A stretch of 47,038 nt of DNA. Origin: Blastocatellia bacterium (GTDB lineage Bacteria > Acidobacteriota > Blastocatellia > UBA7656). A model generated the notes under the pieces. The model did no database searches. It worked only from the letters and a program-made list of their open reading frames with translations, and had not been told where the DNA came from. Below, piece by piece: positions 16,309 through 26,528 of this stretch. Location of the stretch: NCBI GenBank assembly GCA_044868105.1, contig JBIOWC010000561.1:1-47038 (forward strand), written 5' to 3'. Every line of letters begins with the position of its first letter. Position 1 is the stretch's first letter. The position numbers and the translations under genes were made by a program.

Positions 16309-17451
16309 TCAACCGAGCGATTCGGTTAACACGCGCCTCCAGTTGCCGCCCATGATCTTCTCTATCTCAGAGGCTTTGAAGCCATTTTTTTCCAACGCCG
16401 CATACAGGGTGAACATGCGGTTGATGTTATTGAGTTCGGAAATAACCACATGGCGAGGTTCTTTAGCAAATCCCAACACCCCTTGTTGGGCAACCGAACG
16501 CCACCACTCCAGATAGTCTTTAATGCCTTCGGCGTTGTTGTTATTGAGTTTCGCGAGATGCGGTTCGCCGCGCAGCGGGAAATCATTGGCAATCGCCGCC
16601 GCTTCAAGGCCGCCAATTTTAATGACGTGACGCAGTTGTTTAATTACCGCATCAATGGTCGGCGTTAAGTCATCGGTCAACCAGAAACTCATCATAAAAA
16701 TTCCGATGGCGCCGCCTGAACGGGCGACCCGGGTGATCACCTCATCGGCGGCGCAACGCGCATTGTTGACAATCGCCCGGCAGGCGCCGTGCGAAACCAT
16801 CACCGGCTTTTTACTGACGCGCAATACATCGAGCGCCGTCGGGTCGCCAACATGCGCCAAATCCGGAATGATGCCTAACTGATTCATTCGTTCAACGGCG
16901 GCAAACCCGAGTTTGGTCAGCCCCGTCCAGTTCTTTTCAATGCAACCGCCGCCGAAGGGGTTATTGTTATGATGGGTAATCTGCAAAACCCTGAGCCCCA
17001 GGTCGTAAAACAGCTCGATGCGCGAAAGGTCTTCGCCGAGCGGCTCACAACCTTGAAACTGCAAAAAGACCGCGGTCTTTCCCTGTCGAAAGGCTTCTTT
17101 GATCTGACTGCCTTTGGTGGCCAGAAAAGCGCTCTTTTTGCTTTCTAAACTTTGCCGCGCCTGGCGAATGGAATTCGAGCAAGCTTCAAAGGTGCGCCAG
17201 TAACGAATGCTGCCGTCTGCGGTTTTCAGTTGCGTGGCTTGCGAGACATCGGCAATGACTGCCGTGAGGCCCGAGGCGCGGAAATCTTCATCCGTGGTTT
17301 CGGGAACCGAAAGGCACAAACCATCAACAAAGGGAAAATCGGGTCTGTGGCGTTTGTGAGTGGTCGCCAGCCCCACGGGCGCCAGCGCCGCAAGGCTTGC
17401 CGTTTGGAGAAAGGCTCGGCGGGTGAGCCCGGACAAATCTTCTTTTCGCAT
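16309..17451 (-). CDS. Membrane dipeptidase (M19) family protein, Tat-exported
   Basis: TRRAFL twin-arginine motif; GLRVLQITH, DLAH, SHGAC and IMGGNW motifs. Confidence 0.88.
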   Translation of the reverse strand: MRKEDLSGLTRRAFLQTASLAALAPVGLATTHKRHRPDFPFVDGLCLSVPETTDEDFRASGLTAVIADVSQATQLKTADGSIRYWRTFEACSNSIRQARQSLESKKSAFLATKGSQIKEAFRQGKTAVFLQFQGCEPLGEDLSRIELFYDLGLRVLQITHHNNNPFGGGCIEKNWTGLTKLGFAAVERMNQLGIIPDLAHVGDPTALDVLRVSKKPVMVSHGACRAIVNNARCAADEVITRVARSGGAIGIFMMSFWLTDDLTPTIDAVIKQLRHVIKIGGLEAAAIANDFPLRGEPHLAKLNNNNAEGIKDYLEWWRSVAQQGVLGFAKEPRHVVISELNNINRMFTLYAALEKNGFKASEIEKIMGGNWRRVLTESLG

Positions 17452-17508: not shown

Positions 17509-17537
17509 TAGACAAAAGCCTCTGCAAATCTTATCTT
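17509..17537 (+). promoter_or_regulatory. Possible sigma70-type promoter for the ECF sigma gene
   Basis: TAGACA-N17-TATCTT ending 26 bp before ATG 17564. Confidence 0.4.
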
Positions 17538-17563: not shown

Positions 17564-18139
17564 ATGATAGAACAAAGCGATGCGGAATTGGTGCAGGCTT
17601 GCAGAAAGGGCGATGAATTCGCCTGGGAAAAATTGATTTCGCGTTACCAGCGATTAATCTACAGCATCCCGCGTCGGGCGGGTCTTGATGAAGATACGGC
17701 AACCGAAATTTTTCAAAATGTGTTCGCCAGTTTGGTTGAACAACTCGACCGTATCGAACAACCCGACCGCTTGCAGGCCTGGCTGGTGACGACCACGAAA
17801 CGCGAAACCTGGCGACTGATCTTCAAACAAAAAAATTTGCCTACCGAAAGTTTGCACAGCGAGACGGACGATGGCCAAGCCCTTGACCTACCCGACAGCG
17901 CGCCACTTGCCGATGATGTGTTGCTCAGACTCGAAGCCCAGAATCAGGTTCGCCAGGCCGTCGAAGCCTTGGATGAGCGCTGTAATCGCTTATTAAAGAT
18001 GTTGTTTTACACGGCTGAACCTCCGGCCTACGCAGAGATTACGACCGCGCTCGGCCTTCCATCAGGCAGCATCGGACCGACGCGGGCGCGTTGTTTGCAA
18101 AAATTATTGACCATTCTGCAAACTCAAGGATTTGCTTAA
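17564..18139 (+). CDS. ECF RNA polymerase sigma factor (type found beside CHAT proteases)
   Basis: SDAELVQAC..GDEFAW, region 2 (EIFQNVF...AWLVTT), region 4 ending GSIGPTRARCLQKL. Confidence 0.92.
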   Translation: MIEQSDAELVQACRKGDEFAWEKLISRYQRLIYSIPRRAGLDEDTATEIFQNVFASLVEQLDRIEQPDRLQAWLVTTTKRETWRLIFKQKNLPTESLHSETDDGQALDLPDSAPLADDVLLRLEAQNQVRQAVEALDERCNRLLKMLFYTAEPPAYAEITTALGLPSGSIGPTRARCLQKLLTILQTQGFA

Positions 18140-18154
18140 AAAACTTTTCGAGGA

Positions 18155-18184
18155 GGTATTTTTCACCCGCCCGGCGGCACTGTC
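18155..18184 (+). promoter_or_regulatory. Candidate ECF promoter 1 (anti-sigma/CHAT transcript)
   Basis: GGTATTTTTCACCCGCCCGGCGGCACTGTC: GTAT-N18-CACT; the same motif and spacing occur at 23297-23326(-) and 23457-23485(+). Confidence 0.6.
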
Positions 18185-18219
18185 AGATGGGCAAGAAGTT
18201 TTTAAGGAAGAGGTTAAAT

Positions 18220-18813
18220 ATGAACATCAAAGCGCATATCGAGTTTGCCAAGCTGGCTGATCTCGTCGAAAACCGCCTGTCGGCCGAGGAAAGTTCGCCC
18301 CTTAACACGCACCTCGCCGCTTGCAGTCAATGTTCGGATACTTACGCGAAGCTTGCCAAAACCGTCTCCTTAATGCGCGCCAATGAACTGGAAGAGGCGC
18401 CGCCATGGGCAATCGCGCGGGTCACCAGCTTGTTTAAGCCCCGCGCCAAACAAGCGGTTTCTTTATTCGAACGCATCACGGCTTTACTGAAATTCGATAG
18501 TCAACAACTGATGCCCGCCTACGGGGTGCGCTCGGCGGCGGCGACTGAACGGCAGATGCTCTTTGCAGCGGGCGAACGGGAATTGCAATTGCAACTCGCC
18601 CGCGCCAACGATGAATGGATTGTCTCAGGGCAAATCCTTGGCGACTGTGAGGGTGGCGAGATTGAAATCAAAAATTCGAGTCTATCCAAACAGACCGCGC
18701 TTAATCAGTTGTGCGAATTTACCTTGCCACAGGTTCCCGCAGGCACTTACAGCTTGACTCTCCGCCTGAATCACATTGAAATAGAAGTTCCTAATTTAGA
18801 TTTAGGGGCTTAG
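18220..18813 (+). CDS. Soluble zinc-finger (HxxxCxxC) anti-sigma-like protein with C-terminal Ig-like beta domain
   Basis: HLAACSQC zf-HC2 motif, no TM segment, FDS...GVRS linker, beta-rich C-terminus (EFTLPQVPAGTYSL); SD GAGG. Confidence 0.85.
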   Translation: MNIKAHIEFAKLADLVENRLSAEESSPLNTHLAACSQCSDTYAKLAKTVSLMRANELEEAPPWAIARVTSLFKPRAKQAVSLFERITALLKFDSQQLMPAYGVRSAAATERQMLFAAGERELQLQLARANDEWIVSGQILGDCEGGEIEIKNSSLSKQTALNQLCEFTLPQVPAGTYSLTLRLNHIEIEVPNLDLGA

Positions 18814-18815
18814 GT

Positions 18816-21650
18816 ATGACAGCCGACGAGTTAGCCGCGGCGCTGGTGGCGGCTAACCAGACGACGCGAGTTGAACTGCTCGCCAAGCATCCATCATTAC
18901 TCAATCAAGACCTCGCCTTCGCGCTCAAATCCTTATTTTATGAAACCCGGGTGAGCGACCCCGTACGGGCGCGCCACATTTCCGAGGCCCTCAACGCGCT
19001 GAGCGAATTTACACAAAATCCTCACCTCTCGGCCCTCGCCTGTTGGATAGCCGGAATCGTCGCACTCGAAATCGAAGGGCACATCGAACAGGCACTCACC
19101 CAGCTCGACCAGGCGGCCTCACGTTTTCTGGACTTACAGCAACCGCTTGAGGCGGCGTCAACCTGCGTCAGTAAACTGCGCGCTTTAGCCATGCTGGGTC
19201 GTTACGATGAGGCGCTTGAGTGTGGGCTGCAGGCGCGCGATATTTTAGTCGCGCAGGGCGACAAGGTGGCGGCGGGGAAAATTGAACATAATCTCGGCAA
19301 CATCTATTTTCGCCGCGACCGTTACCGGGAAGCCGAACGGTTTTATCGCGCCGCGCGCGCCCGTTTCGCCGCAGCCGATGACCCGAATCAATTGGTGTTG
19401 ATTGATACCTCGCTGGCCATGACGCTGATTAATCAACATCGTTTTCGTGAAGCCGAAGCGCTTTGTGAGCAGGCGCTCCGGCGCGCCGAAACCACCGGAC
19501 AGGTGATTGCGCAAGCCGCGATTGAATGCGATTTGGGCTGTCTGGCGCTCCTGCAAGGGCATTATAATCGCGCCCTTGATTTGCTGGAAAAATCGCGCCG
19601 GCGTTATGCCCAGCTCGGCCTGACGCACGAATCGGCGATTGCCGATTTGGAACTGGCAAACGCTTATCTTGAACTCAACCTGGCTCCCGAAGCCGCCGCG
19701 CTTTACCACAAAACCATTCCACTTTTTGCCGAACTCGGCATGCAAGCTGAACAAGCGCACGCCCTGGCCGCAAAGGCGCGCGCCCATCTTTTGCTCGGGC
19801 AACTCAAAGAAGCAACGGCAAATCTTTTAGAGGCCCGCAAGCTTTACCGTTTAGAAGGCAATGCGGTTGGCGAAGCGATGATCAATTTTGCCGAAGCGCA
19901 GATTGATTTTGCGCGCGGCGATTTTGTGGCTTGCGAAGCAACGGCGCGCCAGGCTGAAATGCCGCTGATGAAGGTCGGCGCCTGGGAGCGCGCCTTTATG
20001 GCGCGTTGGCTTAGTGGTGAAGCCTTGCGGGCGCAAGCTCGTGACGCCGAAGCCCGCCCGATTTTCGACGCCCTGCTGAGCGACCCGAAAATTCAAGCCT
20101 TACCGCAAATCGCTCAACGCTGTTACACCTCGTTAGGTTTTCTCGACGAAAAACATCATCAATTGCCAGAGGCCGAAGCCGCCTTCAAACGCGCCGTCGA
20201 ACTCGTCGAAGATTTGCGCGCCTTGTTGCCAAGCGACGAATTTCGCACAGCCTTTGTTTCCGACAAACTGACGCCTTACACCAAACTCGTTGCCCTTTGT
20301 CTTCAAGATGAAAGCCGCCTTGCCGAAGCCTTGAGCTATGTCGAGCGGTCGCGGTCGCGCTCGCTTGCCGATATGTTGAGCGGCGCCGTACAACTGAAAA
20401 CCCGACCGCGCGATGCTTTTGAAGGGCGTATGCTCGCTCAGCTTGAAACCTCGCGCGAAGAATTGAATTGGCTTTATCGTCAGCTTAATCGCCCGCCGGA
20501 AGCGGCCGCCGACGAGCACGCAAAAACCCTCGCCGCGCTCTATGAGACAATTCACCAGCGCGAAAATCAACTGCTCGAAATCCTGCGGCAACTGCAACAA
20601 CGCGGCGGCGCGAGTTTGATGCGCGTCGAACCGTTTGAGCTTGCCAACCTGCAAAGCCAATTGGACGCGCAGACCGCGATTATCGAATATTTCAGCATTG
20701 ATGATGAATTGATTGCCTTTCTTATCACGAATCGCGAGATTCACCTGAGGCGCGCGTTAGGCAGTGAGCGCGCCATCTCAGCGATGATTGATGGCCTGCG
20801 ATTTCAAATCGGTTCACTGCGTTATGGCGCCGCGCGTATACAAACCCATTTACCGCAGCTGGCGGCGCGCGCCCGCCATTATCTGGCACAGCTTTACGAC
20901 GCCTTGCTGAAACCCTTTGCCGAAAAATTGTCGGCGCAAAGATTAGTCGTGGTGCCGCATCGGGCTCTACATTATGTGCCGTTTCACGCGCTTTATGATG
21001 GCGCGCGTTATGTGATTGAAGGACACGAAGTCTGTTACGCGCCAAGCGCCGAGGTGCTCAGCCATTGTTTGAATGCGCCGGCGCGAAAGTTTCAAAAAGC
21101 TTTATTGCTGGGTGTTGCCGATGAACAGGCGCCGCAAGTTCTTGATGAAGCGCTCGCCCTTAAACCGCTTTTTCCTGAAGCGCAAGTTTTTCTGAATGAG
21201 GCGGCAACCCTCGATGCGCTGCACACGCACGCCGCCGATGCGGAGGTTTTGCATTTAGCCTGTCACGGGCAATTTCGTTCGGATAATCCCCTGTTTTCCA
21301 GTTTGAAATTAAGCGATGGCTGGCTGACGGCGCGCGACGCTTACCATTTAAATTTGCAATGTGGGCTGGTGACCTTGAGCGCCTGTGAAACGGGGATCAA
21401 TGCCATTGCGCCGGGCGATGAATTGATTGGCCTGGCGCGCGGATTTTTTTCCGCCGGCGCGCCGAGTCTCTTGCTGACCCTGTGGACCGTTGATGACGCA
21501 GCGACTGCCGAACTGATGAAAATTTTCTATCAACATTTGCTTGCTGGTCACCTGCCCGCCTCGGCTTTGCGTCAGGCGCAGTGCGAAATGTTAAAGCGTG
21601 AGCCGCATCCTTTCTTCTGGTCACCTTTTGTTTTACTCGGTCGCTGGTAG
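18816..21650 (+). CDS. TPR-CHAT domain caspase-like protease
   Basis: TPR array, then CHAT motifs VVPHRALHYVPF, LHLACHG (catalytic His), TLSACETG (catalytic Cys), LWTVDD, HPFFWSPF. Confidence 0.95.
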   Translation: MTADELAAALVAANQTTRVELLAKHPSLLNQDLAFALKSLFYETRVSDPVRARHISEALNALSEFTQNPHLSALACWIAGIVALEIEGHIEQALTQLDQAASRFLDLQQPLEAASTCVSKLRALAMLGRYDEALECGLQARDILVAQGDKVAAGKIEHNLGNIYFRRDRYREAERFYRAARARFAAADDPNQLVLIDTSLAMTLINQHRFREAEALCEQALRRAETTGQVIAQAAIECDLGCLALLQGHYNRALDLLEKSRRRYAQLGLTHESAIADLELANAYLELNLAPEAAALYHKTIPLFAELGMQAEQAHALAAKARAHLLLGQLKEATANLLEARKLYRLEGNAVGEAMINFAEAQIDFARGDFVACEATARQAEMPLMKVGAWERAFMARWLSGEALRAQARDAEARPIFDALLSDPKIQALPQIAQRCYTSLGFLDEKHHQLPEAEAAFKRAVELVEDLRALLPSDEFRTAFVSDKLTPYTKLVALCLQDESRLAEALSYVERSRSRSLADMLSGAVQLKTRPRDAFEGRMLAQLETSREELNWLYRQLNRPPEAAADEHAKTLAALYETIHQRENQLLEILRQLQQRGGASLMRVEPFELANLQSQLDAQTAIIEYFSIDDELIAFLITNREIHLRRALGSERAISAMIDGLRFQIGSLRYGAARIQTHLPQLAARARHYLAQLYDALLKPFAEKLSAQRLVVVPHRALHYVPFHALYDGARYVIEGHEVCYAPSAEVLSHCLNAPARKFQKALLLGVADEQAPQVLDEALALKPLFPEAQVFLNEAATLDALHTHAADAEVLHLACHGQFRSDNPLFSSLKLSDGWLTARDAYHLNLQCGLVTLSACETGINAIAPGDELIGLARGFFSAGAPSLLLTLWTVDDAATAELMKIFYQHLLAGHLPASALRQAQCEMLKREPHPFFWSPFVLLGRW

Positions 21651-21658
21651 AAGTGAAA

Positions 21659-21751
21659 AAAAGTCAGTAGCAAGGGTCGCCATCTGAGAGCCAGTGATTC
21701 AGCTTCTCTACAAGCGATTCAGCTTCTCTATCGGCGAGGCTACTGACTTTT
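21659..21751. repeat. Inverted repeat enclosing a direct repeat, between convergent genes
   Basis: AAAAGTCAGTAGC (21659-21671) and GCTACTGACTTTT (21739-21751); internal GATTCAGCTTCTCTA twice (21696 and 21716). Confidence 0.8.
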
Positions 21752-21774
21752 CCTGGAGACCTTTTCGTTGACGC

Positions 21775-23220
21775 TTATTTCTTCGTGAAGACCGCCTGTA
21801 CGGAGGAATCTCGATTGATGGTGAGGCTGCAAGTTGGGGCGCTGCCGGAACAAGCGCCTGTCCAGTTGACAAAGCGAAACCCCGTTTCAGGCGTCGCCGA
21901 TAGGGTTACGGTTGCGCCTTGAGCAAATTTGGCGGAGCAAGTGCGGCCGCAGTTAATGCCGGGTTCGGCGCTTACCACCGTGCCCTTGCCACTCTGACTG
22001 ACCGATAAGGTGTAGGCCGGAACGAAACTCGCTCCAACGTTGGTCTGTCCGTTCACCGATACCGTGCAGGTCAAATTATTGCCGCTGCAAGCGCCCGTCC
22101 AGCCCGCGAACGCCGCTTTGTCGGGGCTGGCGGTGAGCGTAACCTGCGAACCCGCTTCATAGGTCGCCGCGCATTTGTTCCCGCAACTGATGAGTTTGTC
22201 CAGTGAATCAATGCTGCCGTTTCCGGTTTTCGCGACGATTACGGCATTGACTTCAACATTGGCCGCCGCCATCTGCGCGCCAATCATATCGCCCAACTCT
22301 CCGGGTTGTGGTGCCGCGCAGGTGCCATCGCCACCGCAGATTACTTGATGGGTGATGGGGTCATAGGCGCCGGTATATTGATAAGTCTCATAACGACGAA
22401 TGACAGAACGCGTCGTCGGGTCTAAGCTGCCTTGATTGCGTTTACGCCGCTGGTTGCCGCCGCTCGGCGGTGATTGCTGCAAAATATCCCAGGAGACTTC
22501 CAGGTGCGAAGCGTCTTGCGGAACAATGGGGTTATCACTCATCAATTCATCAAGCGTGACCTGACGATTCAGTTGAGTTTTGAATATCTTCACCCATTGC
22601 GCGTCGCCATAGGTTTCAGGAGTTTCAGGCGGTTCAGGCGCTTCGATTTCAGCTTCAAGAACCGGCGGTTCACCGGCTTGCGCGGGCGGCGTAATGATAT
22701 AGGTCGGCGCCGGAATCGCCACCGGCGGATTGGCTGAAATTAAATTGCCCGGCGCTTGCGGGTCTTCAATGAGCCAATGATAAGTCGTGCGCGTGGGGTT
22801 AGCGCTTAGCGTTACGCCAAAATGTTCGCAACCGCTCGTGGCGTAGCTGGCCCCGTTCCATTGATAGCAGGTCCCGGCAAAAGACGTGCCCGGCGCGTGC
22901 GGCGTGGTGGTTTGTGAAAAGCGTTGCGTGGCGGCGTCATAGCTGCTTGTCCAACGAACCTTCACCCCGGTTGCCGTTTGCAGGACGGTTGGCTGTCCGT
23001 AGCGCAGAACGCTGAACATATAATAGACATCGTTGAGCTGTAATCCTTCAAGCTCGATTTCAAAACCGTGAGCTTCATGCTCAGTATTATTCACCGCATC
23101 AAAATTTGATAACGAACCATAAAAATTGGCGGTTTGTGCCTGAGCGGAACGAATTGCCACTCCTAATAATAAAGCGAAAAGCAAAGCAAAGTGCACTGAC
23201 CATTTTTTCATATTTAACAC
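21775..23220 (-). CDS. Secreted protein with an unknown N-terminal domain and two C-terminal InlB B-repeat-like (Ig-like) domains
   Basis: Signal peptide AQA-Q; two repeats of G.G.V.S....I.CG..C.A....G..VTL.A.P....F..WTGACSG....C. Confidence 0.85.
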   Translation of the reverse strand: MLNMKKWSVHFALLFALLLGVAIRSAQAQTANFYGSLSNFDAVNNTEHEAHGFEIELEGLQLNDVYYMFSVLRYGQPTVLQTATGVKVRWTSSYDAATQRFSQTTTPHAPGTSFAGTCYQWNGASYATSGCEHFGVTLSANPTRTTYHWLIEDPQAPGNLISANPPVAIPAPTYIITPPAQAGEPPVLEAEIEAPEPPETPETYGDAQWVKIFKTQLNRQVTLDELMSDNPIVPQDASHLEVSWDILQQSPPSGGNQRRKRNQGSLDPTTRSVIRRYETYQYTGAYDPITHQVICGGDGTCAAPQPGELGDMIGAQMAAANVEVNAVIVAKTGNGSIDSLDKLISCGNKCAATYEAGSQVTLTASPDKAAFAGWTGACSGNNLTCTVSVNGQTNVGASFVPAYTLSVSQSGKGTVVSAEPGINCGRTCSAKFAQGATVTLSATPETGFRFVNWTGACSGSAPTCSLTINRDSSVQAVFTKK

Positions 23221-23296
23221 GAATATCCTTTCTAAATTGATTAGCGAATATCCGCATTCAGCAGGCGAGGCGCTAAAAACAGTTTCGCTTCGCCCG

Positions 23297-23326
23297 GACA
23301 GTGTCAGGCGCCAGCCTTGAAATACA
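23297..23326 (-). promoter_or_regulatory. Candidate ECF promoter 2 (secreted InlB-repeat gene)
   Basis: Minus strand TGTATTTCAAGGCTGGCGCCTGACACTGTC: GTAT-N18-CACT. Confidence 0.6.
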
Positions 23327-23456
23327 TGATTGAAAAAATATGTACCACGACTATCCTGGAGACCTCTTCAATCAGTCCATACCCCTTGGGTGAATTCCAA
23401 AAAATACCGCTGTTACTGCTGAATTTTTTTCTCACGAAAATATATTTTGGCGGTCA

Positions 23457-23485
23457 GGTATTTTTTTTACTATTCAAGACACTTT
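23457..23485 (+). promoter_or_regulatory. Candidate ECF promoter 3 (S8 peptidase gene)
   Basis: GGTATTTTTTTTACTATTCAAGACACTTT: GTAT-N18-CACT. Confidence 0.6.
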
Positions 23486-23541: not shown

Positions 23542-24810
23542 ATGCGTAGAAGCGTAATTTTTATTTTACTTTTTTCTCTCACCGCTCTTTTTTTGTGTGC
23601 CTTACCCGATTTCAAACCGACTAAAGTTAAAGCGTCACAAAGCGGCCGAGCGGTGCCTACGGAAGTTGTTGTCAAGCTCAACCGAGCCGAAGATTTGACC
23701 GGCGTCGCACTCGATTATGACCTCGACCCGACACCCCTGGCGCAATTTGGTGCGCGTCCCATCTACCTTTTGAAAATCCTTGGCGGAGAATCGCCAAACG
23801 ATAGAGTTGATGCGCTGATGGCTGACCCGCAAGTGCGCGTCGCTTATGCGGAAGTCAATTTGGTCGCCGAACCGCCGGAGGATTCAGGACGGGTGTTGTG
23901 GTCGGCGGGTGAGGGTTCAACCCAATATTATGGACAGTGGGCGCCGCTAAAAATCCGCTTGCCGGAAGCCCACACCGTAACCCGTGGTGCAGGCAGTACG
24001 ATTGCCGTGCTCGACACCGGCGTGGATTTCACGCATCCGCAACTCGCCGGACATTTAGTTCCGGGATACGATTTTATTGATAACGATAATGACCCAAGCG
24101 AAGTCGGCGTCTATGGAGAAGATCGCGGCTTCGGACATGGAACGCACGTTGCCGGACTCGCGGCGCTGGTGGCGCCAGAGGCGAAGATCTTACCCGTGAG
24201 AGTATTAAATGAACATGGCGAGGGCAGTTTGTGGACGCTGGCCGAAGGCTTGATATACGCCGTTGACCCGGATAACAATCCGGCGACTAATGATGGAGCA
24301 GACATCATCAACTTAAGTCTCACCACCATCGAACGCAGTAGATTGATTAAGGACATTCTGCGAGCCGTCACCTGTCAAGACGCGGCATCGCCGGATGCCT
24401 TTCCCTGCATCCGGCCGGGCGTGGTGATTATCGCTTCGGCAGGCAATAACGGCAGTTCCGACCTCGAATACCCGGCTGCCGAACCGGTCAGCGGCTTGCT
24501 TGCGGTTGGCGCCAGCACGGAATTCGACACCTTAGCCACGTTTTCAAACTTTGGCTCCTGGGTAGAGATTGCGGCGCCTGGTGAATATGTACTGAGCACC
24601 GTGCCGGGCGGGGGATTTGGAACCTGGAGCGGAACCTCGATGGCGGCGCCGCTGGTGGCGGGCGAAGCAGCTTTGGTGCGCTCGGTCTTATCGAGATCCG
24701 ACCCCTCGAGAATTATTCAGCGCATCACCTCCAACAGCGCGAGAATTTCAGGACCCATCCGCTCGCGCATCGATACAGCTTACGCAGTTGGGCTTAGTCG
24801 CCCGCGCTAA
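23542..24810 (+). CDS. S8 subtilisin-family serine peptidase with signal peptide and propeptide
   Basis: AVLDTG, HGTHVAG, SAGN and GTSMAAP triad/oxyanion motifs; SD GAGG before ATG 23542. Confidence 0.95.
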   Translation: MRRSVIFILLFSLTALFLCALPDFKPTKVKASQSGRAVPTEVVVKLNRAEDLTGVALDYDLDPTPLAQFGARPIYLLKILGGESPNDRVDALMADPQVRVAYAEVNLVAEPPEDSGRVLWSAGEGSTQYYGQWAPLKIRLPEAHTVTRGAGSTIAVLDTGVDFTHPQLAGHLVPGYDFIDNDNDPSEVGVYGEDRGFGHGTHVAGLAALVAPEAKILPVRVLNEHGEGSLWTLAEGLIYAVDPDNNPATNDGADIINLSLTTIERSRLIKDILRAVTCQDAASPDAFPCIRPGVVIIASAGNNGSSDLEYPAAEPVSGLLAVGASTEFDTLATFSNFGSWVEIAAPGEYVLSTVPGGGFGTWSGTSMAAPLVAGEAALVRSVLSRSDPSRIIQRITSNSARISGPIRSRIDTAYAVGLSRPR

Positions 24811-25334
24811 AAGGGTTGGGCGTTAAAAACCTCTCGGGTGATGGAAAAATAAATGGTGTCGAGGCCATCGGAAATTCCGCGTTTTAGATAGGCCATGCCG
24901 AGTTTTTCCATCACTCGAAACGAGGCCCGATTCGGCGCGTCCGCAGAGGCTTGAATACGGTCGAACTGGAGATGCGTAAACCCGTATTCCATAACTGCAC
25001 GCGCCGCTTCAATAACTAGCCCTTTCCCCCAATGGATTTCTGAAACCGCGTAAATCAATTCAAGTTCGGGTGGGTCGTGAAAGAACCAATAGCCGCAAAA
25101 CCCGATAAGCGCTGGGTCACCGATAAACCGCAGGGCCCATAAGCCGTAGCCCTGAGTGGCAAAAAGGTCATCACTGGTTTGCAGAAAAGCGGCGCTCTGC
25201 TCGCGCGACAAAATTTGATCATCGAAGAGGTATTTGCGGACGCCTGCCGTGATGCAGAGTTCGTGAAAAGCATCTCTGTCCTGCGCCGTAAGCGGCCGCA
25301 GGTTCAATCTGGTTGTAGCAATATCAAAAGACAC
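24807..25334 (-). CDS. GNAT (RimJ/RimL-like) N-acetyltransferase
   Basis: TTRLNLRPL, LIGFCG, HWGKGL and NRASFRVMEKLGM motifs. Confidence 0.9.
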   Translation of the reverse strand: MSFDIATTRLNLRPLTAQDRDAFHELCITAGVRKYLFDDQILSREQSAAFLQTSDDLFATQGYGLWALRFIGDPALIGFCGYWFFHDPPELELIYAVSEIHWGKGLVIEAARAVMEYGFTHLQFDRIQASADAPNRASFRVMEKLGMAYLKRGISDGLDTIYFSITREVFNAQPF

Positions 25335-25475: not shown

Positions 25476-26528
25476 TTACAAATCCTTTAACAATTGCCGC
25501 AAGGTGGAGCCGTAACTGAGTTCTGGTTTTTGATATTTCGCCTCCGAACTGAGGCGCGGCAATTTCGGAAAGTGAAGTTCGCTGGTCGGGAGTTGCATCA
25601 TGTCCGAAGCGCCAACGAAAAAGCGCGGCGTCAGATGCACGGGATGAGCCGGTTCGGTAACCCATTCGCGCTCATCTTCTATCGCTTCGCGCAACAGTTC
25701 AGGTAAATAATGCATCATGCCGACTGAGGCAATCTCGCTGCCGCCCTGGGTCATCAACTGCATCAACAATTCTCTGACCGCTTCAGGAAACTCGGTAATC
25801 ATATCCGGCGTGAGTTTGCCGCCCGCAAGCACGAACAAAATGGCTTCACGAATGGTGTGAGAAAGTTTATCCAGGGTCTCCGACAGAATATCTTCGCTGA
25901 CTTCAGCGCCGGGCATTGCCGCAACTGTAATGTCTAAAGCTTGCTCGGCGCCGAATCCCGATTTTTCCAACACCTCGATAAATTCAAAGGGTTCCAGTTT
26001 GTATTCCGCTTCATCGGCGGTCACCGGCGAAATGGTGCCGCGTGGCGTTTGAATGGTGTTTGAGGCGATTAATGAAATATAGCCGTGCAGCGGCGAACGC
26101 ACACCGATTTCAAATTGATATTCGCGGTCAGGAAAAACCATCATCCAATAGCGTCCGCGCCGGTCAACATTGAAAAACGCTTCATGTCCGCCCCGTGTGT
26201 CGTGTAACTTCAAAACCGTTTTGAAGGTCGCAACCTCTTCAGGAGCAAATAGTTTTTTGAGCGAATCGAGGTTCTCTTCGCGCACTTCCCAATAAATGAA
26301 GACGCGAAACGGGTCTTGAATCATGGCGCGGATGATGTCGGCGCCATAGGTTTCCGGAATCGGCAATCCCAAATCTATGTAAGGCTCGGCATCCACCGAA
26401 GGTTTGGCGTTTATTTCTGACCTTGCCAATTCGGTTTCCGGCAAAGCAGGTGCAATTAAGCTTTGCGGTTCAGACGGTTGAAATAGTGGGCTGGTTTTAA
26501 AGGGTGACGATGGTCTCAGTACAAACAA
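25476..26528 (-). CDS. DUF4912-domain protein
   Basis: IPETYGADIIRAMIQDPFRVFIYWEV...EIG...IASNTIQTPR matches the DUF4912 pattern; SD GAGGAG before TTG. Confidence 0.78.
   Translation of the reverse strand: MFVLRPSSPFKTSPLFQPSEPQSLIAPALPETELARSEINAKPSVDAEPYIDLGLPIPETYGADIIRAMIQDPFRVFIYWEVREENLDSLKKLFAPEEVATFKTVLKLHDTRGGHEAFFNVDRRGRYWMMVFPDREYQFEIGVRSPLHGYISLIASNTIQTPRGTISPVTADEAEYKLEPFEFIEVLEKSGFGAEQALDITVAAMPGAEVSEDILSETLDKLSHTIREAILFVLAGGKLTPDMITEFPEAVRELLMQLMTQGGSEIASVGMMHYLPELLREAIEDEREWVTEPAHPVHLTPRFFVGASDMMQLPTSELHFPKLPRLSSEAKYQKPELSYGSTLRQLLKDL

Follow-up and report, generated by a model that had tools for sequence, protein, structure and literature searches.

Three candidate promoters around an ECF sigma factor gene of a Blastocatellia bacterium, and the sigma factor that probably reads them

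The DNA considered here, contig JBIOWC010000561.1 of a Blastocatellia bacterium (assembly GCA_044868105.1; positions 1 to 47,038, all 47,038 nucleotides of which are hereafter termed the window), encodes a sigma factor of the extracytoplasmic function (ECF) type, and in the vicinity of its gene a pair of short blocks, GTATTT and CACT(G/T)T, recurs three times with 16 nucleotides (N16) between the blocks. The question that the locus raises is what reads these sites, termed P1, P2 and P3. An earlier note on this DNA had proposed that they are the -35 and -10 elements of the ECF sigma factor; rarity in the genome, conservation at orthologous loci and an independently trained weight matrix support that proposal, and it is very probable, as far as DNA sequence can tell, that GTATTT (-35) and C[A/T]CTGT (-10) are promoter elements read by the sigma factor encoded at 17564-18139, with P1-P3 as its circuit. 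The features on which the argument turns are as follows.

17564..18139, forward strand: ECF sigma factor gene, 191 residues (Pfam Sigma70_r2 1.4e-7; TIGR02937 sigma70-ECF 72.6 bits, cut-off 42.9)
18156..18183, forward strand: P1, predicted ECF-type promoter, GTATTT-N16-CACTGT (GTATTT 18156-18161, CACTGT 18178-18183)
18220..18813, forward strand: predicted soluble zinc-type (ZAS-like) anti-sigma factor gene, 197 residues (H31-x3-C-x2-C; RsiW profile match)
18816..21650, forward strand: TPR-CHAT caspase-like protease gene, 944 residues (Pfam CHAT 1.6e-67 plus TPR repeats)
21775..23211, reverse strand: gene for a predicted exported protein with divergent InlB B-repeat domains, 478 residues, the P2 output (Pfam Flg_new_2 5.9e-19; signal-like N-terminus)
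23298..23325, reverse strand: P2, predicted ECF-type promoter, GTATTT-N16-CACTGT (GTATTT 23325-23320, CACTGT 23303-23298)
23458..23485, forward strand: P3, predicted ECF-type promoter with a weaker -10, GTATTT-N16-CACTTT (GTATTT 23458-23463, CACTTT 23480-23485)
23542..24810, forward strand: gene for a predicted exported subtilisin-like (S8) protease, 422 residues, the P3 output (Pfam Peptidase_S8 1e-40; signal-like N-terminus)

P1 begins 16 nucleotides past the sigma stop codon (TAA, 18137-18139) and ends 36 nucleotides short of the anti-sigma start codon (ATG, 18220), P2 lies 86 nucleotides upstream of the ATG of the InlB-repeat gene (23211), and P3 lies 56 nucleotides upstream of that of the S8 gene (23542). 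In each there are 18 nucleotides from GTAT to CACT, i.e. 16 between the hexamers, and each is directed at its own gene. The earlier note had located all three motifs correctly, with the same spacing and direction; their position upstream of the genes stands, its range of about 35-80 base pairs becomes 36-86 nucleotides on measurement, and the third of its quoted strings was short by one base. The pattern GTATTT-N16-CACT has three matches in the window, as compared with a mean of 0.05 and a maximum of one in 100 dinucleotide-preserving shuffles, none of which reached three; as the pattern was set after the sites had been seen, independent tests count for more. The note had called for a genome-wide search, and had held that its proposal would fall if the motif were as common in random intergenic DNA or absent from orthologous loci.

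Across the whole assembly (G000; 8.9 Mb in 934 contigs, the window being contig C561), GTATTT-N16-CACT has seven matches, three of them in this 5.3-kb locus, one intergenic (C652:2079) and three inside long open reading frames (ORFs). The full pattern, GTATTT-N16-C[AT]CT[GT]T, has exactly four, namely P1, P2, P3 and the C652 site, all of them intergenic and gene-directed, and its reversed control has one. With four such sites in 8.9 Mb, the motif is not common. For the exact form GTATTT-N16-CACTGT, five related genomes yielded 11 matches, as against three when the pattern was reversed. The sigma locus accounts for seven of the 11, and another three stand between genes, ahead of ORFs with signal peptides. 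The remaining one, an exact 12-base match at G001:C18:58031, lies in a 485-codon frame, the next ORF being unrelated to the InlB-repeat protein (E 5.1), and is probably a chance occurrence.

The C652:2079 site stands about 100 nucleotides upstream of the gene for a predicted exported protein of at least 650 residues, with a signal-like N-terminus; no Pfam family was found in this protein, and a relationship to the InlB-repeat protein was considered and rejected (E 0.22). Two of the three intergenic matches just mentioned precede homologues of this protein, one in G001 (70% identity, motif of 27.4 bits) and one in G020 (63% identity across 220 C-terminal residues, motif of 29.6 bits), so that an unlinked target retains the motif in three genomes; in the ~220 nucleotides upstream of the ORF for a distant homologue in G017, no motif was seen. 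The predicted regulon has at least one member, C652, outside the window.

Sixty-one related genomes were searched for homologues of the sigma factor, and close ones were found in G001 (84% identity), G009 (64%), G016 (62%), G017 (61%), G020 (61%), G055 (50%) and G051 (48%), together with a separate, widespread class of sigma paralogues at 42-50% identity. The orthologous set comprises seven loci, i.e. the window and the syntenic loci of G001, G009, G016, G017, G020 and G051; the G055 locus, which has no TPR-CHAT-sized ORF and no motif match, was left out. The gene order sigma, anti-sigma, TPR-CHAT, S8 holds in all six syntenic loci. In 7/7 loci the sigma stop and the anti-sigma start have a site between them, which is exact in G001, G009, G016 and G020, with GTATCT in G017 and GTCTCT in G051. 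The S8 gene is likewise preceded by a site in 7/7, with the -10 elements CACTTT, CACTTA, CACTAT, CTCTAC, CACCTA, CTCTGT and CACTGT. At both conserved sites the spacer is 16 nucleotides throughout, and the spacer sequences are unrelated. As the S8 sites have a weaker -10 in all seven loci, the threshold for activation of the S8 output may be higher.

An orthologue of the InlB-repeat protein was found in one of five related genomes searched, G020 (64% identity over 455 residues), the same-genus G001 giving no match at E 1e-20. In G020 the gene (L042, 3392-4870) follows the S8 gene in the same orientation, and in the window it is inverted between the TPR-CHAT and S8 genes; the motif is kept upstream in both. 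The motif is thus present at orthologous loci for every class of site in the window, the sole InlB-repeat orthologue found included. Further motif sites in these loci stand before the genes for an ATP-grasp protein (G009) and a GT28-type glycosyltransferase (G016), in addition to that before the InlB-repeat gene of G020. The G017 locus (L041, ~2098-2160; also L005) has tandem motifs after the sigma stop, GTATTT-N16-CTCCGA at +1 and GTATCT-N16-CACTGT at +30.

A weight matrix trained on 11 sites of G001, G009, G016, G017 and G020 only was scanned over all 17,768,232 positions of G000, alongside control matrices that were reversed, given a wrong spacer (13-19) or, in five cases, column-shuffled. 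P1 scored 30.4 bits (rank 1), the C652 site 27.1 (rank 2), P2 20.3 (rank 4) and P3 16.2 (rank 9). The score of P1 exceeds that of every match to a control matrix, and by score only P1 and C652 stand out. The match of rank 3, C40:7196 (21.8 bits), has GTAATT and GCTCTT as its blocks and lies inside a 385-codon frame on the opposite strand; it, too, is probably due to chance.

The position of the site directly after the sigma gene recurs over a wide range of relatives. Loci of relatives, 31 in number, cover two clades of sigma factors (supports of 100 and 99 on the sigma tree), that of the window's sigma factor and that of the paralogues; in 30 of them the sigma stop is followed by GT[AC]T[TC]T-N16-[CG][AT]C[TC], within 30 nucleotides in 28 and at about 105 nucleotides in two. 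When named public genomes were scanned with an alignment of the sigma factors, there were at least 563 relatives among 599 candidate stretches, of which the best 80 were kept. These comprise 53 from Acidobacteriota (Blastocatellia, Pyrinomonadaceae, Chloracidobacterium and Aridibacter), 21 from Chloroflexota, five from Betaproteobacteria and one from Rubrobacter; three are identical to the loci of G016, G017 and G020, and 79 were assessable for the motif. Within 160 nucleotides after the sigma stop it is present in 64/79, against 0/79 when the antisense strand is read as a control; by group the counts are 46/53 for Acidobacteriota, 14/21 for Chloroflexota, 4/4 for Betaproteobacteria and 0/1 for Actinobacteriota. 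Within the 1.5-kb flank of the best 80, an anti-sigma homologue follows the sigma gene in 73 and a TPR-CHAT N-terminus is present in 67.

Close relatives of the sigma factor (L075-L154), with anti-sigma and TPR-CHAT alongside, occur at 45-63% identity in Chloroflexota, Burkholderiales and a metagenome-assembled genome of Rubrobacter. The distribution of the whole module points to either horizontal spread or great age, and errors in the binning of metagenome-assembled genomes may also have contributed.

If the sites are read by the adjacent sigma factors, changes in the one might be matched by changes in the other, and for the -35 element this appears to be so. The pool for this comparison held 111 loci, 94 of them with a motif and three of them duplicates, and the tree had 108 rows. 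Where the -35 is GTAT(T/C)T, the region-4 helix of the sigma factor reads S(I/V)GPT(R/K)xRCL, in 85/85 loci; where it is GTCT(T/C)T, the helix reads (S/G)ISP(L/M)R(A/S)RCL, in 9/9. The latter sub-clade includes G051 (L044), where both the anti-sigma and S8 promoters have the variant, L129, L135, L145, L146, L149, L151 and L152. That the -35 variant tracks the region-4 helix is suggestive. For the -10, the clade-specific region-2 loop (residues 64-69, IEQPDR as compared with LRDHEK) was considered as what sets A or T at position 2, and this was rejected, since loops with the proline accompany CACTGT in 40 loci and CTCTGT in 22.

Several observations weigh against the proposal, in whole or in part. 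The spacing N16 is not enriched genome-wide relative to other spacings (5-11 matches across N12-N21). The control matrices give between four and 16 genome matches of at least 16 bits, as compared with nine for the real matrix, with maxima of 17.6-25.1; since they match as often below about 25 bits, the matrix is unable to list a genome-wide regulon, and as the scores of P2 and P3 fall inside the control range, both sites rest on position and orthology. The AAC that is typical of ECF promoters is missing from the -35, GTATTT. Among the 79 named relatives, 15 have no motif within 160 nucleotides. The covariation of -35 and helix is a single change on the tree (support 99), i.e. one independent pair, which makes a statistical test of it impossible, and A or T at position 2 of the -10 has changed at least eight times on the tree, independently of the region-2 loop. 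Finally, the S8 sites of G016 and G020 have -10 elements like those of the paralogue clade (CTCTAC and CTCTGT, respectively) and two paralogous modules in G000 have the same -35, so that cross-reading between the sigma factors is possible.

These last points bear directly on the alternative that survives best, namely that the motifs are real ECF-type promoters, but that they form a shared regulon, for which a paralogue of the sigma factor, from the same family, would be the main reader or an equal one. Two modules of the same genome would provide such a factor. That on C63 (L065, 3000-6260) comprises a sigma gene, the motif, a zf-HC2 anti-sigma gene and a TPR protein gene cut by the contig end; that on C506 (L066, 3955-9671) comprises a sigma gene, the motif and genes for an exported DUF5666 protein, an anti-sigma-like protein and a TPR-CHAT protein. 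Both carry the -35 found in the window, GGTATTTTTT, directly after their own sigma stop codons, with CTCTAC or CTCCAT as -10, and the region-4 helix is identical in the two clades. The -10 element, by contrast, is clade-specific: among the 31 loci, CACTGT stands beside the sigma gene in 7/8 members of the window's clade, and CTCT or CTCC in 22/23 of the paralogue clade. Similarly, positions 5-6 of the -10 are GT in 65/71 loci whose sigma factor has a proline at residue 67, versus 2/23 in the paralogue clade, where 17/23 have A at position 5, although this association with loop type is one phylogenetic split and hence weak as statistics. On balance a shared regulon appears unlikely, and we infer that the sigma factor encoded in the window, rather than a paralogue, would read P1-P3. 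In G000, a site like the paralogue motif, at C313:3007, precedes the gene for another DUF5666 protein.

Operators, too, can be conserved as two-part sites of constant spacing, and the two blocks might accordingly be bound by a transcription factor or other DNA-binding protein instead of being promoter elements. The blocks, however, form neither a palindrome nor a direct repeat, and their 16-nucleotide spacing, gene-ward orientation and distance of 36-86 nucleotides from start codons suit a -35/-10 pair. Moreover, the site travels with the sigma gene in three phyla, the variant form of the -35 goes together with an altered DNA-reading helix in the sigma factor, and the sigma and anti-sigma genes are the only regulator genes conserved in the locus; a binding site of this kind is therefore very improbable. 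It is scarcely credible that P1 and C652 are the only real sites and that P2 and P3 match by chance. The scores of P2 and P3 are within reach of the control matrices, but with only nine matches of at least 16 bits in 17.8 million positions it would, by our own arithmetic, be very unlikely for two to fall in a single divergent intergenic region of 330 bp beside the sigma locus. Moreover, a site precedes the S8 gene in 7/7 orthologous loci, and the G020 orthologue of the InlB-repeat gene has its site as well, despite its different position and orientation.

With the sites best read as promoters of the window's own sigma factor, the proteins of the locus become of interest. The profile of the sigma family has as its best solved relative SigW (5wuq_A, 7e-14), with SigH and RpoE also among the best, and together with the TIGR02937 and Pfam matches this assigns the product of 17564-18139 to the ECF (group 4) sigma-70 factors. 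The predicted anti-sigma protein has an HxxxCxxC motif and a Pfam zf-HC2 match that is under threshold (0.004), and no hydrophobic segment (largest KD19 0.45). The profile of its family, built from nine homologues, matches RsiW (5wuq_C, 6.6e-6) and, more weakly, the N-terminus of DdvA (8rlz_A, E 0.008), ChrR and RslA. A model of the complex between the sigma factor and anti-sigma residues 1-95 scored 0.83, the best of three controls scoring 0.01; at least 98% of contacts agree between runs and the partner pLDDT is at least 83. The mark thus passed is reached by 58/80 solved complexes and 2/110 mismatched pairs, counts that are only rough for this pair, which was modelled with an alignment of our own, and as solved look-alike complexes exist, the pass may reflect likeness only. 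Taken with the profile matches, the model identifies the neighbouring gene as that of a probable cognate anti-sigma factor. In the paralogous modules, the anti-sigma-like proteins have weak, sub-threshold CarboxypepD_reg matches.

The TPR-CHAT gene starts 2 nucleotides past the anti-sigma stop. Its product has an intact His-Cys dyad (HLACHG, H813; SACE, C855) and lacks a signal-like N-terminus (largest KD19 1.41). The InlB-repeat and S8 proteins, the two exported outputs of the earlier note, both begin with a signal-like hydrophobic segment.

The circuit differs from the usual arrangement in how the sigma gene itself would be expressed. Positive autoregulation of the sigma gene is usual among ECF sigma factors, though not obligatory; here there is no sign of it, as in all seven loci the 260 nucleotides before the sigma gene contain no ECF-type motif of at least 3 bits on either strand. 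Instead, the following element is present in the window.

17509..17537, forward strand: predicted sigma-70-like promoter of the sigma gene, TAGACA-N17-TATCTT (9/12 consensus matches)

Across the orthologous set, GCT(G/A)GACA-N17-TAT(C/T/G)(T/C)T stands 25-35 nucleotides before the sigma start codon in 6/7 loci, the spacer being N18 in G016; G051 has no match. The earlier note had described both the absence of the motif and the TAGACA-17-TATCTT element, and both descriptions are borne out. Its term 'constitutive' goes beyond this evidence, which shows a housekeeping-like promoter. No terminator-like site was found in the window between the sigma stop and P1, which makes read-through from the sigma promoter into the anti-sigma gene probable; the anti-sigma gene would then probably be transcribed from both promoters, as is the case for sigH-rshA of Corynebacterium glutamicum.

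The following scheme for the operation of the circuit may be envisaged. At rest, the conserved housekeeping-like promoter, acting without autoregulation, would supply the sigma factor plus a basal level of anti-sigma factor, and the sigma factor would be held inactive. A cytoplasmic signal, sensed via the TPR-CHAT protein, would lead to loss of the anti-sigma factor, and it may be that the CHAT protease frees the sigma factor by cutting the anti-sigma factor. Free sigma factor would then fire P1, with transcription expected to begin a few bases after the -10, so giving more anti-sigma factor, i.e. negative feedback, as well as more of the translationally coupled TPR-CHAT protease. It would also fire P2, P3 and the C652 promoter, leading to production of the exported InlB-repeat protein, the exported subtilase and another exported protein.

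Parts of such a circuit have precedents. In the C. glutamicum SigH-RshA system, the sigma and anti-sigma genes are transcribed together from housekeeping promoters, and there is a separate SigH-dependent promoter for rshA alone, proposed to shut the response down quickly (PMC3489674). The window is similar in having a sigma-70-like promoter before the sigma gene and a predicted cognate promoter between the sigma and anti-sigma genes. By contrast, its sigma family and motif differ, its predicted feedback operon includes a TPR-CHAT protease, and its predicted outputs are exported proteins rather than thiol or heat stress genes.

A second precedent is the DdvS-DdvA pair of Myxococcus xanthus, in which, according to the published account, an N-terminal ZAS domain and a periplasmic TPR-CHAT region are joined in a single transmembrane protein, DdvA, the genes controlled by DdvS form a CBASS/CRISPR defence island, and fusions like DdvA occur only in Myxococcota and in one Comamonas; release of the sigma factor by the protease is described there as still a hypothesis, even for DdvA (PMC11506125). 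Common to both are an ECF sigma factor, a zinc-type anti-sigma domain, a TPR-CHAT protein with a His-Cys dyad, several promoters that are (in the window, predicted to be) sigma-dependent, and a compact local regulon. Unlike in DdvA, the anti-sigma factor and TPR-CHAT protein of the window are encoded by two genes (18220-18813 and 18816-21650) and lack hydrophobic segments, so that the arrangement is not of the DdvA type, and unlike the DdvS defence island, the predicted outputs are exported proteins.

The type III-E Craspase (Csx29, Csx30 and an ECF sigma factor; PMC10028731) is similar in showing genetic linkage between a cytoplasmic TPR-CHAT protease and an ECF sigma factor. Csx29 (NF041237) is also the best NCBIfam match of the CHAT protein of the window, at 68.6 bits against a cut-off of 300, and the protein is thus not assigned to Csx29. 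No CRISPR effector is found in the conserved gene set of the loci, cas genes and arrays in the window not having been searched for.

The group ECF54, as described in a review, was defined in Actinobacteria, has a genomic context with carboxypeptidase, subtilase and CHAT domain proteins, is described as being without an anti-sigma factor, and has been proposed to be controlled by proteolysis (PMC8999054). The loci considered here have a conserved S8 subtilase and TPR-CHAT protein, which may correspond to part of that context, CarboxypepD_reg being found only below threshold and only in the paralogous anti-sigma-like proteins; unlike ECF54 as described, the window locus has a predicted ZAS-like anti-sigma factor. 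The term 'CHAT' is absent from the main text of PMC7826278, and in the limited collection of literature searched, no description of this motif or module was found.

The genes flanking the locus have no motif, and are as follows, together with a further feature between the convergent TPR-CHAT and InlB-repeat genes.

16309-17451, reverse strand: M19 membrane dipeptidase gene
21660..21750, no strand assigned: long imperfect hairpin, possibly a two-way terminator (-40.9 kcal/mol)
24807-25334, reverse strand: GNAT acetyltransferase gene
25476-26528, reverse strand: gene for a DUF4912 protein

As a significant structure the hairpin was rejected (z = -1.46; 15/200 shuffles fold equally well). Within it, at 21696-21730, there is a 15-nucleotide direct repeat, GATTCAGCTTCTCTA, in two copies with a period of 20 nucleotides.

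The motif system of the window is, by its sequence features, probably an ECF sigma factor with a private promoter, which is a well-known kind of system. What would go beyond the ordinary is that the promoter comes after the sigma gene, and not before it, and that this arrangement recurs across three phyla with a soluble anti-sigma factor and a TPR-CHAT protein. It is a plausible, though tentative, extension of these results that there is a large, uncharacterised, cross-phylum ECF family, with at least 563 relatives in species-representative genomes, in which the cognate promoter lies within ~20 nucleotides past the sigma stop, the sigma gene is never autoregulated and the targets of feedback are a zinc-type, soluble anti-sigma factor and a caspase-like TPR-CHAT protease of the cytoplasm. 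Such a family might be a CRISPR-independent, split counterpart of Craspase and DdvA, in which the protease cuts the anti-sigma factor, and in which a region-4 helix with GPT reads GTATTT and one with SP(L/M) reads GTCTTT. According to Casas-Pastor 2021, prediction of target promoters relies on ECF autoregulation, and subgroups that are not self-regulated show no motif (PMC7826278). A family with its promoter after the sigma gene would therefore score as motif-less, and the motif may have been systematically missed.

The motif makes an uncharacterised four-gene module, comprising a sigma factor, a soluble anti-sigma factor, a TPR-CHAT protease and an exported subtilase, accessible to testing, and P1, P2 and P3 are ready reporters for whether a caspase-like protease releases an ECF sigma factor outside a CRISPR context. 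The common -35, the clade-specific -10 elements and the single co-change of helix and -35 provide natural material for the study of specificity and orthogonality of ECF promoters. For the organism itself, an uncultured acidobacterium from soil that resembles Pyrinomonadaceae, the prediction is that the regulon is small and made up of exported proteins.

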